Of a stretch of 12,036 nucleotides of DNA, positions 1-12,036 are shown in pieces; the stretch's first letter is position 1; the number at the start of each line of letters is the position of its first letter. A program made the translations under genes and the position numbers. Origin of the DNA: a virus (Duplodnaviria > Heunggongvirae > Uroviricota > Caudoviricetes); IMG/VR virus record IMGVR_UViG_2734482777_000021; one strand, 5' to 3'. The notes below the pieces were generated by a model. The model had not been told where the DNA came from and made no database searches. It saw only the letters and a program-made list of their open reading frames with translations.

Positions 1-17
1 AGGGGAGTATATGGCAC

Positions 18-47
18 ATAAAACAAAGGCGACCGGGGGCGGTCGCC
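18..47 (-). terminator. Putative intrinsic terminator for leftward transcription: perfect 8-bp stem GGCGACCG/CGGTCGCC (28..35 / 40..47) with a 4-nt loop, followed on the minus strand by TTTGTTTTAT
   Basis: Read directly from sequence. The hairpin is followed by a T-rich tract only on the minus strand. It lies about 135 nt downstream of the RHH gene stop. Confidence 0.4.
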
Positions 48-183
48 AATGGGAAAACACTAAACATAAGCCCGAACATCATAGCGATTTGCTGGCTGGT
101 GGGCAATCTGTCAGGTTTGCACCAATGACTCTAGGTTTAACCGAGGGTCATTATGGTGAATACGCTGGCTTGCTGGTGGGCTG

Positions 184-360
184 TCAGCTTTTTGACTCAA
201 TGCCGCGTTTATCTAATTCGCGTCGTAAAAGCCTTTTGATCCATCCAGAGCGGTTATCGTCGCCATCTTCTTTCATGGCAATGCTTAAACGCTCGAACAA
301 ATCTGCGTCCAGACGTAGTTGCACGGAAAATCTTTCTTTTTTGTTGTCATTGGTTGACAT
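184..360 (-). CDS. Ribbon-helix-helix (Arc/CopG/MetJ-like) DNA-binding protein, candidate master repressor of the element
   Basis: The internal Met of the 184..468 ORF gives a 58-aa protein, MSTNDNKKERFSVQLRLDADLFERLSIAMKEDGDDNRSGWIKRLLRRELD..., with a beta-strand/helix/helix pattern typical of RHH proteins. GAGG lies 6 nt upstream of the ATG at 360. The longer 94-aa version has no SD and a hydrophobic non-RHH extension. Orientation is divergent from the replication operon. Confidence 0.55.
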   Translation of the reverse strand: MSTNDNKKERFSVQLRLDADLFERLSIAMKEDGDDNRSGWIKRLLRRELDKRGIESKS

Positions 361-370
361 GGTAAACCTC

Positions 371-420
371 TGTGATAATAATGTCATCAAGGTGACAATG
401 TATACCAATGACACCATAAA
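371..420. promoter_or_regulatory. Divergent promoter/operator region: palindrome TGTCA-N6-TGACA (382..397), a further TGACA at 410..414, and a candidate sigma70 promoter (-35 GTGACA 392..397, 17-nt spacer, -10 CATAAA 415..420) reading rightward
   Basis: Inverted repeat and hexamers read directly from the 133-bp gap between the divergent starts at 360 and 494. Promoter assignment is by consensus resemblance only. Confidence 0.3.
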
Positions 421-493
421 GACAACGCCCCGCAGTGCTGGAACACATGCAGAGCGTCTGACCACCAACGATAGCGAAAGTATCGAGGTAGCT

Positions 494-9013: not shown

Positions 9014-9306
9014 CAGCAGAAAAAATAACCCTGGAAGAAGCCAAACTTCACTGCCGCATAGACGGTAACACAGAAGACACACTGATTCAGGCATACATAA
9101 GCGCGGCGCTGGAGGTATGTCAGAAACATATTGGTAGGCGTTTTGATGATGGCCTGGAATTTACCCCTGCAATAAAAATTGGCTGCCTGATGTACATCTC
9201 GCAACTGTACGAGTACCGGACAACGCTTGGCGATACAGATACAAAAGAAATTCCCCTGACGATTTCCGCGCTCTGGTCGGTTTATCGTGATGTGGGGGTG
9301 TACTGA
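9010..9306 (+). CDS. gp6-like head-tail connector protein
   Basis: 98 aa. The N-terminus ITLEEAKLHCRIDGNTEDTLIQAYISAALEVC is characteristic of gp6-like connector proteins. Its stop overlaps the HNH start (TGATG). Confidence 0.65.
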   Translation: MTAEKITLEEAKLHCRIDGNTEDTLIQAYISAALEVCQKHIGRRFDDGLEFTPAIKIGCLMYISQLYEYRTTLGDTDTKEIPLTISALWSVYRDVGVY

Positions 9307-9746
9307 TGCCGTGGCAACCATTAAGGCGATGCACAGAGCCGGGCTGTAATAAGCGCGTGAAGTCCGGCAAGTGTGAAGAACACAGGCGGGCCGCATGGCG
9401 TGCAGAGGATGCCAGACGGGGACACCGCCGCGCGCGCGGGTATTCCCGACAGTGGGACAAATATCGCGCCCTGTACCTGAAAAAAAATCCGTTATGTGTG
9501 CGTTGTCTGGCTGAGGGTATTTATACGCCAGCCTTTGTGGTGGATCACATTATCCCCATCAATGGCGGCGGTGATGTTCTCTTCTGGCCTGAGTGGAACC
9601 ATCAGGCATTGTGCCAGACGTGCCACAACCGTAAGACGACACGGGAAGATCCAGCCACGAAAGCGAACCGTAAGGCGGGCATGTATCGCGAGCAGGAAGA
9701 ACGGGCGGCACATCGTAACGACTGGATGTATGGCGATGATGACTGA
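9306..9746 (+). CDS. HNH endonuclease (terminase-associated)
   Basis: 146 aa. Cys clusters CTEPGCNKRVKSGKCEEH and CVRC; HNH core VVDHIIPINGGGD...WNHQALCQTCHNRKT. It sits directly upstream of terS/terL, as in cos-type HK97-like packaging modules. Confidence 0.85.
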   Translation: MPWQPLRRCTEPGCNKRVKSGKCEEHRRAAWRAEDARRGHRRARGYSRQWDKYRALYLKKNPLCVRCLAEGIYTPAFVVDHIIPINGGGDVLFWPEWNHQALCQTCHNRKTTREDPATKANRKAGMYREQEERAAHRNDWMYGDDD

Positions 9747-9915
9747 ACAGGAGCAAAACAGGCTGATACGTGGACTGATAAGGCAGCGTGACTTATGGAA
9801 GACACAGGAGACAGGGCACAAAGCCAACAGGACAGGACGCACAGAACGCACCACAGCGAAGCGATTAACCGACCGTGACCGCGAGGTCATGGAATGTTTT
9901 CGCAATCGCTGGTGA
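9730..9915 (+). CDS. Hypothetical small basic protein (about 59-61 aa; start at 9730, 9736 or 9739)
   Basis: The in-frame ATG cluster overlaps the HNH stop. The protein is very Arg/Lys-rich. No SD and no recognisable motif; it could be non-coding. Confidence 0.25.
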   Translation: MAMMTEQEQNRLIRGLIRQRDLWKTQETGHKANRTGRTERTTAKRLTDRDREVMECFRNRW

Positions 9916-10034
9916 AGTCGTCAGAGGGGGTGGGGGAGGTTTTCAGGACGAAACCGTCCCTGCCGGACACCGACCGCCTCCTCAAATTTTTGTGCACGGT
10001 AATTTTTTTGAAAATAATTGGGCGAAAAAAGAAC
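9916..10034. other. Candidate cos/packaging-site region between HNH and terS: G-tract GGGGGTGGGGGAGG, hairpin GGACG-aaac-CGTCC, C-rich CGCCTCCTC, T-runs
   Basis: Non-coding gap in the position where cos sites of HNH-dependent phages commonly lie. Sequence elements read directly; function inferred. Confidence 0.25.
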
Positions 10035-10391
10035 ATGGCAAGACCACCAAAAGCCCCCGCTTACCTGGATGAAATCGCGGTCAGGCAGTGGAAGGAAAAA
10101 TCGCGCCAGCTTTCCGGGCGGGAAGACCTTACCCCCGCCGACTGGAGCAATCTGGAACTGTATTGTGTTAACTACTCCATATACCGCAAAGCCGTCGAAG
10201 ACCTTGCGACGCGCGGGTTCAGCATTGTTAACAGTCAGGGCAGCGAGAGCAGAAACCCCGCACTGAGCGCAAAGGCTGACGCAGAAAGAATAATGATCAA
10301 AATGGCTTCTTTGCTGGGTTTTGACCCGGTAAGCCGTCGCAGAAATCCACCGGAAACAGAGGAAGAGGACGAACTTGACCGCCTGGCATGA
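10035..10391 (+). CDS. terS: Terminase small subunit, P27 family-like
   Basis: 118 aa from the internal Met. The N-terminus MARPPKAPAYLDEIAVRQW matches the typical start of P27-family small terminases. The ORF-track start at 9894 adds a 47-aa extension that I judge unlikely. It overlaps terL by 17 nt. Confidence 0.7.
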   Translation: MARPPKAPAYLDEIAVRQWKEKSRQLSGREDLTPADWSNLELYCVNYSIYRKAVEDLATRGFSIVNSQGSESRNPALSAKADAERIMIKMASLLGFDPVSRRRNPPETEEEDELDRLA

Positions 10392-12036
10392 GTACGCAGA
10401 AGGCGTAAAAAACGGCAAAATTACGGCCTGTAAACGACTGAAACAGGCCGTTAAACGGTATTTTTCTGACCTTGAAAACTCCCTTTACACGTTCGATCCG
10501 GAGGTCGTGGAGCGGTTTATTGCCTTTTCCCGGGTGTGCCCGCACGTAAAAGGCGCAATGCGCGGTAGCCCCATTGAACTGGAGCCGTGGCAGCAGTTCG
10601 CCTTTGCCTGCATCCTGGGCTTTAAGGTTAAGGCCACCGGACGGCGCAAATACACCAGCGCATTCATTGAAGTACCGCGAAAAAATGCCAAATCCACGGT
10701 CGCCGCTATCCTGGCTAACTGGTTTCTGGTTATGGAAAACGGGCAGCAGGATATTTACACCGCCGCCGTGAGTCGTGATCAGGCGCGGATCGTGTTTGAT
10801 GATGCGCGTCAGATGTGCCTTTTATCCCGACCGTTACGAAAGCGGGTAAATATTCAGGCGCACAAGGTGATACACCCGAAAACCAACAGCCTGTTAAAGC
10901 CACTGGCAGCAAAAGCGGCAACCATTGAGGGGACAAACCCGAGTCTTGCCATTGTGGATGAATATCACCTGCACCCAGACAACGGGGTTTATTCCGCACT
11001 TGAGCTGGGGATGGGGGCGCGTCCGGAGGGGCTGTTATTTGCCATCACCACATCGGGGAGCAACGTTGTTTCAGCCTGTAAACAACACTATGACTATTGC
11101 TGTCAGATACTGGATGGTGAAGAGATGAACGAATCCATGTTCGTTCTGATTTACGAGCTGGATGATGAAAGCGAGGTTGACGATCCGGCGATGTGGATAA
11201 AGGCGAATCCAAATATCGATGTTTCCGTCGATCGTGAAAAACTGGCCTCAACCATCCAGAAAGCGCGGGGTATTCCGTCGCAGTGGGTGGAAATGCTCAC
11301 CAAGCGATTCAATATCTGGTGTCAGGGGGCTACGCCGTGGATGGGTAACGGTGCATGGGCGGAGTGCGCCGGAACGTTCGCGGAGGCGGATTTATACGGG
11401 CAGGAGTGCTACGCGGGGCTGGACTTATCATCAACCAGCGATATTTCCAGCGTGTGCTATGCCTTTCCGGTCGGTAAAAAGATTATGCTGGTTTCCCGTC
11501 ACTATCTGCCGGAATTTCAGCTACAGAACCCCGCCAATAAAAACCGCGCCATCTATCGCCAGTGGGTAAAGGCGGGCTGGATACGCACAACACCGGGTGA
11601 CTGCATTGATTATGACCGTATCCGTGATGACATCATGGCGGATGCAGAGAATTTCAATATCAGGCTGGTGGGCTTCGATACATGGAACGCCACGCACCTG
11701 AGGACGCAGCTACAGGGGGCAGGATTTGAGGTGGAGCCGTTCCCGCAAACATACCTTCGTTTCAGTCCGGCGGCGAAATCGTTCGAAGTTTTTGTTAACC
11801 GGAAGGTGATTGTGCATCGTGGTGATCCGGTGCTGGCCTGGTCAATGAGTAATGTTGTGATGCAGAGTGACGCGAACGCCAATATCAAGCCGAACAAGAA
11901 AAAATCATCCAACAAGATAGACCCGAGCGTTGCGGCGCTGATGGCGTTTGGCACATTCCAGGCAGAGCATGAGGAATTTGCATTCGATATGAGCGACAGC
12001 CACAAAGAGCGGCTTGCGGCGTTTGATGGTGTGTAA
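10375..12036 (+). CDS. terL: Terminase large subunit (ATPase + nuclease)
   Basis: 553 aa. Deviant Walker A VPRKNAKST (around nt 10670..10696), typical of HK97-like TerL. The start is TTG at 10375, with AGAGGA about 7 nt upstream and no in-frame ATG nearby. The gene ends at the last base of the window. Confidence 0.9.
   Translation: MTAWHEYAEGVKNGKITACKRLKQAVKRYFSDLENSLYTFDPEVVERFIAFSRVCPHVKGAMRGSPIELEPWQQFAFACILGFKVKATGRRKYTSAFIEVPRKNAKSTVAAILANWFLVMENGQQDIYTAAVSRDQARIVFDDARQMCLLSRPLRKRVNIQAHKVIHPKTNSLLKPLAAKAATIEGTNPSLAIVDEYHLHPDNGVYSALELGMGARPEGLLFAITTSGSNVVSACKQHYDYCCQILDGEEMNESMFVLIYELDDESEVDDPAMWIKANPNIDVSVDREKLASTIQKARGIPSQWVEMLTKRFNIWCQGATPWMGNGAWAECAGTFAEADLYGQECYAGLDLSSTSDISSVCYAFPVGKKIMLVSRHYLPEFQLQNPANKNRAIYRQWVKAGWIRTTPGDCIDYDRIRDDIMADAENFNIRLVGFDTWNATHLRTQLQGAGFEVEPFPQTYLRFSPAAKSFEVFVNRKVIVHRGDPVLAWSMSNVVMQSDANANIKPNKKKSSNKIDPSVAALMAFGTFQAEHEEFAFDMSDSHKERLAAFDGV

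Follow-up and report, generated by a model that had tools for sequence, protein, structure and literature searches.

Phage-inducible chromosomal islands of the capsid-forming type (cf-PICIs) are a family of phage satellites that was first described in 2022-23 (10.1101/2022.09.08.507074). EcCIEDL933, the island on which the family was defined, is 15.4 kb long, and its transfer depends on each of the following: capsid, protease, portal, both neck proteins, HNH, TerS and TerL (10.1101/2022.09.08.507074). This island makes its own small capsids whereas the helper supplies tails only (10.1101/2022.09.08.507074; 10.1101/2025.02.11.637232), and its capsid is a 47.5-nm T=4 shell of the HK97 fold (10.1101/2025.02.11.637232). 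Induction by a helper phage, T=4 capsids of the island's own making, packaging of nothing but island DNA and a need for helper tails alone have been demonstrated for EcCIEDL933 and few other members only. EcCIEDL933 is located in the chromosome of E. coli O157:H7 EDL933, between roxA and phoQ (NZ_CP008957.1, 1,680,329 to about 1,695,500; L017:329-15500). The present work deals with a stretch of 12,036 nucleotides, the IMG/VR virus record IMGVR_UViG_2734482777_000021 (hereafter the window), which corresponds, with a probability of about 0.93, to most of an integrated cf-PICI of Escherichia coli/E. albertii, covering its middle and its right-hand side. The element belongs to the published family as a new and uncharacterised representative, in the prototype's own species. 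A previous sequence-only reading had described the architecture as cf-PICI-like and not that of a full prophage; this was borne out, and all the gene assignments named in it were recovered by strong hidden Markov model (HMM) matches.

The window is organised as a single long rightward array of open reading frames (ORFs) plus one leftward gene. The gene order is the same as in EcCIEDL933, from the Icd-like gene through DUF4222, Pri-Rep, iterons, SSB, PerC and a small ORF to TerL, and the two islands are collinear gene for gene, with near-equal protein lengths, a size of about 15 kb and no tail or lysis genes in either (54-93% amino-acid identity, two small early proteins being lower; Table 1). 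Each of the nine packaging genes of the prototype (1786-1794) has an orthologue in the window, and the packaging modules share about 78% nucleotide identity. The eight head and packaging proteins (capsid, protease, portal, adaptor, connector, HNH, TerS and TerL) all exceed curated cut-offs, and the 11 core components of SatelliteFinder are present whereas the forbidden ones are absent (criteria from PMC10085698). The complete head-morphogenesis and packaging set proposed from the letters alone is the one that Pfam, PHROG and NCBIfam return, with the capsid, portal and terminase assignments in agreement when HMMs are run on all proteins. The replication module, a pri-rep gene followed by an iteron origin, was found as predicted. 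Genes beyond those named in that reading are DUF4222, SSB, PerC, the small ORF at 9730-9915 and the minus-strand accessory gene at 4876-5382. No ORF of the window matched tail, baseplate, holin, endolysin or spanin families in the Pfam, PHROG and NCBIfam searches, as the same reading had claimed, and no tail or holin/lysis gene was matched across the whole element either (L011 6024-21256, the contig introduced below).

The capsid protein is 389 aa long and shares 63% identity with the 385-aa capsid of EcCIEDL933, and its best match in the PDB is 9gyi_B, the T=4 capsid of EcCIEDL933 (E 3e-153), a chain that equals the EcCIEDL933 capsid sequence over the aligned stretch shown. This PDB sequence search gave four matches at E 0.001, none of them HK97 gp5. 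The 22-residue connector loop, which has been proposed to set the T=4 geometry (10.1101/2025.02.11.637232), aligns without gaps between both capsids.

The borders of the element were obtained from a longer contig. The window begins at the base that follows the alpA stop codon and finishes at the terL stop codon, so integrase, alpA and attachment (att) site are not found within the window itself; a tRNA search of the window also gave none. Contig L011 (GCA_021059405.1) is 100% identical to the window across all 12,036 bases (window = L011:8541-20576), and there the complete element measures 15,233 bp, in the order attL, int, a 264-aa ORF, alpA, the window, a second iteron cluster and attR. The element is bounded by a 14-nt core, AGAAATACCCGTAT, at L011 6010-6023 and 21243-21256, with a start-to-start spacing of 15,233 nt. 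Between the right end of the window and thiM lie about 680 bp of island DNA that is non-coding. The flanks are chromosomal, with yehABCD and rcnBAR on one side and thiMD on the other, rcnR and thiM being the nearest genes. When the flanks are joined in silico at the 14-nt core, the resulting sequence is found uninterrupted and 100% identical in 4,728 of 5,426 complete E. coli genomes, where the empty site is annotated as 'rcnR | riboswitch | thiM'. Among the same genomes attL junctions occur in 72 and attR junctions in 75, with breakpoints exactly at the 14-mer. Extension of the contig therefore gave the integrase, the att repeats and a size within the 12-16 kb that had been anticipated, and the tail and lysis genes of a contiguous 35-50 kb prophage, which had been named as the finding that would contradict the reading, are replaced on both sides by rcnR and thiM.

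Phage HK97 and the HNH-dependent cos siphophages are close to the element in their head module: they share the capsid with its delta domain, the S78 protease, the portal, the gp6-like adaptor and the head-closure protein, as well as packaging by HNH, P27-type TerS and TerL. The locus could be a decayed HK97-like prophage, in which deletion of the tail, lysis and lysogeny modules has left a head/packaging remnant beside an unrelated replication gene. The phage-derived, HK97-type families of its head and packaging genes would fit such an origin, as would the closest phage homologues of the head-closure protein Hc1 (62-68% identical) and a close relative in E. coli strain 10 that is surrounded by prophage genes. 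However, the att borders are precise and the empty site is clean, all ORFs are intact with lengths matching their EcCIEDL933 counterparts, and the organisation of about 15 kb repeats, each time with another integrase, at no fewer than four attachment sites. The order of the gene block from capsid to terL is that of cf-PICIs and is inverted with respect to HK97-type siphophages, from which the island also differs by its 15 kb and by the lack of tail, lysis and lysogeny-switch genes. In a megablast search against 50,697 phage records, no phage genome covered more than 32% of the window, and identity was about 76%. In strain 10, tail and lysis genes do adjoin the island on either side, because this island, which has its own integrase, is nested in the terL of the prophage and splits it; the island is not part of a 40-kb phage. 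Decay of a prophage is thus very improbable and can be considered largely refuted, and a complete HK97-like prophage does not agree with an att-bounded element of 15.2 kb with chromosomal flanks: having neither tail nor lysis genes and a length of 15 kb, the element does not qualify as a prophage.

Some phage records deserve a separate comment. Those matching the packaging module at about 76% nucleotide identity include LR881103.1 (vB_KppS-Ant, 16,548 bp, described as 'induced prophage'), OR850982.1 and OR845787.1, the last two being short fragments of 3.8 and 1.6 kb. The three are probably cf-PICIs or cf-PICI fragments and not phages. A 1.6-kb 'phage' record isolated on ATCC 43895 was considered as EDL933 DNA and discarded, its best E. 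coli matches (97.5%) being with other strains.

The left half of the element resembles other satellites. Classical Gram-negative PICIs (EcCICFT073, EcCIED1a, EcCIMP1) share the int-alpA-pri-rep left module and PerC-like regulators, and phage P4 shares the integrase type, an AlpA/Vis-like regulator, the Icd-like gene and a primase-helicase, together with a helper dependence that is presumed here. A classical PICI or a P4-like satellite, which remodels or reuses helper capsids, would account for this shared left module, with its P4-type arm-binding integrase, AlpA, Icd-like, DUF4222, primase-helicase with iterons, and PerC. Classical PICIs, however, lack capsid, portal, adaptor and TerL genes and redirect helper packaging, for instance via Rpp or TerS, whereas the present element has its own capsid, protease, portal, Hc1, Ad1, HNH and TerL, exactly the components that SatelliteFinder forbids in PICIs and uses as the mark of cf-PICIs (PMC10085698). 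P4 uses the capsid proteins of its P2 helper, resized by Sid, and the helper terminase and cos site; in contrast, the element carries its own terminase, and no homologue of Psu, Sid or Delta was found in Pfam or PHROGs. It is therefore not a classical PICI, since portal, neck proteins and TerL are present, nor P4-like, since sid, psu and delta are missing, and this reading is exceedingly improbable. What the cf-PICI probably does have in common with the classical Gram-negative PICIs, by analogy, is AlpA-dependent induction.

Several differences separate the element from its prototype. Its integrase is only 67% identical to that of EcCIEDL933 and its site is the thiM riboswitch instead of the roxA-phoQ interval; it has an extra minus-strand gene of 168 aa and the 264-aa ORF between int and alpA, and it lacks the 93-aa ORF that follows terL in the prototype. 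The replication origin is also arranged differently. Six exact copies of the iteron TAACCCGCA occur in 3616-3760, in the order two inverted, an AT-rich spacer and four direct copies spaced 21 nt, with no further exact copies elsewhere in the window; when one mismatch is allowed there are 10 matches in the window, a number that none of 200 shuffles reached. A second iteron cluster stands at L011 20656-20811, that is, 80-235 nt past the window end and downstream of terL. It is composed of three copies of TTGCGGGTTA, an AT-rich stretch and three copies of TAACCCGC, and its orientation mirrors that of the cluster after rep. Both homologous clusters of EcCIEDL933 lie side by side after rep (L017 6193-6500), whereas in the element they are 8.4 kb apart. 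As judged from this arrangement, the lineage has a split origin, and the strain 10 relative, integrated at another attachment site, shows the same displaced second cluster after terL.

Of the 5,426 complete E. coli genomes, 1,915 match some part of the window and 27 match 80% or more of its length; CP056936.1 is an example of a carrier genome. In a public collection, exactly this TerL protein is listed for 2,686 blocks, and the identical capsid protein occurs in E. coli as well as in E. albertii. Besides, the capsid/portal/terminase block recurs, at about 97% nucleotide identity, in combination with different integrases and replication modules and in different places: near fis/dusB, in the roxA-phoQ interval and inside a prophage terL. 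Relatives at fis/dusB carry other replication modules (D5_N/Pox_D5 primase, AAA_25). It was also observed that the fis/dusB relatives (L003-L007, about 8605-8932, equivalent to window 8637-9306) have a divergent Ad1 (55% identity) and no Hc1 gene. The recurrence of the packaging module with different integrases, replication modules and sites is the behaviour of a mobile modular satellite. The strain 10 relative is 96.8% identical, has an integrase with 41% identity and lies inside the terL of a resident HK97-like prophage; its top-hit pattern recurs in at least five complete genomes. In that strain (L001, NZ_CP048330.1) the prophage terL fragments are located at 5397-6425 and 21930-22673, separated by the nested cf-PICI. 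A satellite nested in this way would inactivate packaging by a potential helper.

An intact cf-PICI is not necessarily a mobilisable one, and the island could be domesticated or inactive, for example through the lack of a compatible helper or through a crippled origin or cos. The displacement of the second iteron cluster to a position after terL, the loss of Hc1 in relatives at the fis site and the presence of the island at the thiM site in only 72-75 of the 5,426 complete genomes would be in line with this. Nevertheless, there are no frameshifts or truncations, copies with 99.4-100% identity are found across many independent assemblies, and the exact capsid is shared by the two species mentioned above. 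In addition, the displaced cluster has been kept in the strain 10 relative at a different site, from which it is argued to be functional. Inactivity therefore seems unlikely, although it weighs more than the two other alternatives.

The neck proteins deviate from the prototype in a way that concerns the tails. Hc1 is 62-68% identical to head-closure proteins of temperate Klebsiella phages and Escherichia phage Fraca, which are siphophages, versus 54% to EcCIEDL933. Since Hc1 is closer to these siphophages than to the prototype, the sequences suggest that the neck module came from, or has become adapted to, a tail donor other than the HK106 tails of EcCIEDL933. The equivalents of Hc1 and Ad1 set tail compatibility and are swapped between otherwise identical cf-PICIs (10.1101/2025.02.11.637232), and the divergence pattern of Hc1 fits this published role.

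As regards the terminase block, the gene calls of the sequence-only reading stand in their identities but not in all their starts. The start of TerS had been placed at 9894, giving a protein of 165 aa; it is most likely at 10035, because four elements keep this start codon and because in EcCIEDL933 the sequence upstream of it is out of frame. The portal start was corrected to 7455. The 61-aa ORF (orf61) occupies the same position as a 60-aa ORF of EDL933, 'gene 1792', mutation of which causes a severe drop in transfer (10.1101/2022.09.08.507074). The aligned stretch 9700-10060 shows 94% mean column identity in four elements, versus 78% for the whole packaging module, and the non-coding part between orf61 and terS, which contains GGGGTGGGGG, is on this basis the best candidate for the cos site. 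A related invariant hairpin at 9873-9892 lies inside orf61, just upstream of that part.

By homology with EcCIEDL933, the element would be inducible, mobile and dependent on a presumed helper. A helper phage or prophage would turn on alpA, and Int would excise the island. Pri-Rep, together with the SSB encoded by the island, would then replicate it from the TAACCCGCA iterons. The rightward late operon would supply the HK97-fold capsid, the protease and the portal to build small procapsids (T=4, about 47 nm) suited to some 15 kb, which the S78 protease would mature. TerS-TerL, HNH and the 61-aa protein would recognise and cut a cos-type site upstream of terS in such a way that only island DNA is packaged. 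Finally, Hc1 and Ad1 would seal the filled head and form the docking interface for the tails taken from a helper siphophage.

Several points weigh against this picture. Its presumed helper, induction, capsids and packaging are deduced from the genes. The window has no int, alpA or att site, and because of this the full picture depends on the identical contig L011. One half of the compound origin of the EcCIEDL933 type sits after terL, outside the window, and Hc1 (54%) and Ad1 (68%) are counted as the least conserved parts with respect to the prototype. Moreover, the SxGxxAD motif, which marks the mature N-terminus of the EcCIEDL933 and HK97 capsids, is not literally conserved, the window having STSTDSGRDGG. 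Capsid residues 91-103, at the position of this motif, read LSTSTDSGRDGGY, with a 2-residue insertion, and the maturation cleavage site may, from its sequence, be slightly different.

The attachment site shows a particular feature. The 14-nt core AGAAATACCCGTAT lies inside the aptamer of the thiM thiamine pyrophosphate (TPP) riboswitch, and the island splits this aptamer. At attR, Rfam gives only a match of 36.8 bits to the TPP riboswitch, below the gathering score of 54.3; the 3' half of the aptamer is preserved there, with island DNA in place of the 5' half. attL keeps the 5' half and the thiM promoter, which faces int. An intact thiM riboswitch is present in 5,338 of 5,425 genomes, and 72-75 of the remaining 87 carry island junctions. 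In the carriers, thiMD is located behind island DNA with only the 3' half-aptamer. Folding of the attR thiM leader, in terms of exposure of the ribosome-binding site, gave outcomes that varied with the upstream context. It may be that this lineage uses the TPP aptamer of thiM as its attachment site, cutting it between the P2/P3 (pyrimidine) and P4/P5 (pyrophosphate) arms, but this proposal is a tentative one and is rather doubtful. A literature search that did not cover the supplementary att-site tables of the cf-PICI papers retrieved no report of a riboswitch as the attachment site of a satellite or prophage, and no paper tying thiM to PICI or prophage attachment sites.

A 70-nt direct repeat was also considered as the att core and was rejected because the junction in the empty site falls at AGAAATACCCGTAT. 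The two copies of this repeat (L011 6109-6178 and 21110-21179, 99% identical) lie inside both arms and hold the tandem GTGTGGTCAGTT; judging from this layout, they are probably arm-type sites for integrase binding. An analogous tandem repeat, GTGTATTGC, occurs in both arms of the strain 10 relative, which has a different integrase.

The only leftward gene of the window belongs to a low-GC accessory cassette (4854-5435; the GC content falls to 0.39-0.42 around 4800-5700) which is missing from EcCIEDL933 and from a near-identical relative of the element (L013). Its 168-aa product has no match in Pfam, PADLOC or NCBIfam. An AlphaFold2 model (pLDDT 70) shows a beta-rich N-terminal domain and a hydrophobic C-terminal helix, and in a Foldseek comparison with this model no PDB entry had an E value below 0.04, while TM-scores did not exceed 0.32. 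There are 98 homologues across Gammaproteobacteria, all annotated as 'hypothetical'; the neighbours are DUF2971 or HEPN_RiboL-PSP genes, within variable islands (as in Xanthomonas and Pseudomonas) or within the cargo regions of prophages. The gene may serve in defence or exclusion, or be other accessory cargo. Several homologues are found on assembly contigs of about 15-16.5 kb (14,855, 15,662, 15,986, 16,186, 16,376 and 16,495 bp), each of which could be an entire cf-PICI genome that was assembled on its own.

With respect to the left end, the first rightward ORF had been read by some gene finders as 229 aa (11-700). Its C-terminal part of about 100 aa is indeed Icd-like, the phrog_6196 and phage_ICD_like matches being confined to it, whereas the N-terminal 130 aa are probably spurious: homologues exist for the C-terminal part only, and a strong promoter-like site, TTGACA-17-AATAAT at 354-382 on the plus strand, lies within the longer frame. 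This is the best promoter-like site in the island. Positions 1-470 resemble a divergent control region, where the site at 354-382 is overlapped by promoter-like sites of the minus strand; the same end also contains a minus-strand ORF (184-360/468) with no homologues, and a strong minus-strand terminator-like hairpin at 47-28. The two small ORFs that follow the Icd-like gene are both gene-called in identical contigs and have no counterpart in EcCIEDL933. For the helicase part of Pri-Rep, the nearest solved structures are 8tch ('Pathogenicity island protein', E 1e-14) and 5dgk ('Active helicase'), which we take to be the Rep of a staphylococcal pathogenicity island and the Cch helicase of SCCmec, respectively. 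PerC-like genes are common among Gram-negative PICIs (PMC11773190). A bidirectional terminator-like hairpin at 4850-4869 lies 3' of the last gene of the early operon. The coordinates of all the features are collected in Table 1.

Table 1. Features of the element. Positions are those of the window unless L011 is indicated; the last column gives the amino-acid identity to the EcCIEDL933 counterpart.
Feature	Position	Strand	Matches and remarks	Identity
Tyrosine integrase	L011 6213-7433		PF00589 and arm-DNA-binding domain	
alpA (AlpA-type regulator)	L011 8316-8540		PF05930, phrog_2790; final base directly before window position 1	
Icd-like small protein, first gene of rightward early operon	398-700	+	phrog_6196 E 3e-56; NCBIfam phage_ICD_like E 3e-19	
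Small ORF, 81 aa, unknown function	690-935	+	phrog_5146/2512	
Small ORF, 77 aa, unknown function	910-1143	+	weak phrog_2196	
DUF4222 protein, conserved pri-rep partner gene just upstream	1150-1464	+	PF13973 E 1e-18	49%
Pri-Rep, primase and self-loading replicative helicase (DUF927)	1461-3587	+	PF06048 E 1e-46; phrog_1139 'DNA primase' E 2e-174	83%
Iteron replication origin, cluster A	3612-3763		2 inverted and 4 direct TAACCCGCA around AT-rich spacer	
SSB	3824-4249	+	PF00436 E 4e-16; phrog_44	70%
PerC-family transcriptional regulator	4265-4546	+	PF06069 E 3e-35	60%
Small conserved ORF, 82 aa, last of early operon	4592-4840	+	phrog_1957 E 2e-36	43%
Accessory gene, 168 aa, unknown function	4876-5382	-	only phrog_5789 (unknown function)	
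HK97-fold major capsid, N-terminal delta (scaffold) domain	5669-6838	+	PF05065 E 2e-71; TIGR01554 E 3e-102	63%
Prohead maturation protease S78	6893-7453	+	PF04586 E 2e-45; phrog_80	62%
Portal	7455-8678	+	PF04860 E 6e-93; phrog_12 E 6e-119	82%
Head-closure Hc1 ('adaptor' in cf-PICI papers)	8675-9013	+	PF05521, TIGR01563, phrog_25	54%
Head-tail adaptor Ad1, gp6-like ('connector' in cf-PICI papers)	9010-9306	+	PF05135, TIGR01560, phrog_40	68%
HNH endonuclease, terminase accessory factor	9306-9746	+	PF01844 E 2e-9; phrog_144 E 1e-44	83%
orf61, 61 aa, orthologue of EcCIEDL933 'gene 1792'	9730-9915	+	phrog_3173 E 3e-29	82%
Conserved non-coding stretch upstream of terS, putative cos/terminase recognition site	9916-10034		contains GGGGTGGGGG	
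TerS, P27/Terminase_4 family, 118 aa (most likely start)	10035-10391	+	PF05119 E 4e-23; phrog_83 E 3e-38	81%
TerL, ATPase and nuclease	10375-12036	+	PF03354, PF20441; phrog_9 E 2e-180	93%

The cf-PICIs carry chromosomal DNA, defence and virulence genes between enterobacterial species by means of the tails of different phages, and their correct recognition keeps them from being annotated as 'incomplete prophages'. The element adds little to the concept itself, since the family, the prototype and the capsid structure have already been published. It is, on the other hand, a clean case of module exchange around a conserved core of capsid and terminase; what is exchanged comprises the integrase with its attachment site as well as the replication module, neck proteins and accessory cassette. 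The attachment site in the thiM riboswitch is the sole feature with some potential for novelty. If this use of the aptamer had functional consequences, TPP feedback would no longer be coupled to thiamine salvage and biosynthesis (thiM, thiD) in strains that carry the satellite, transcription from the thiM promoter might enter the integrase gene, and satellite carriage would be linked to the regulation of a vitamin pathway of the host.

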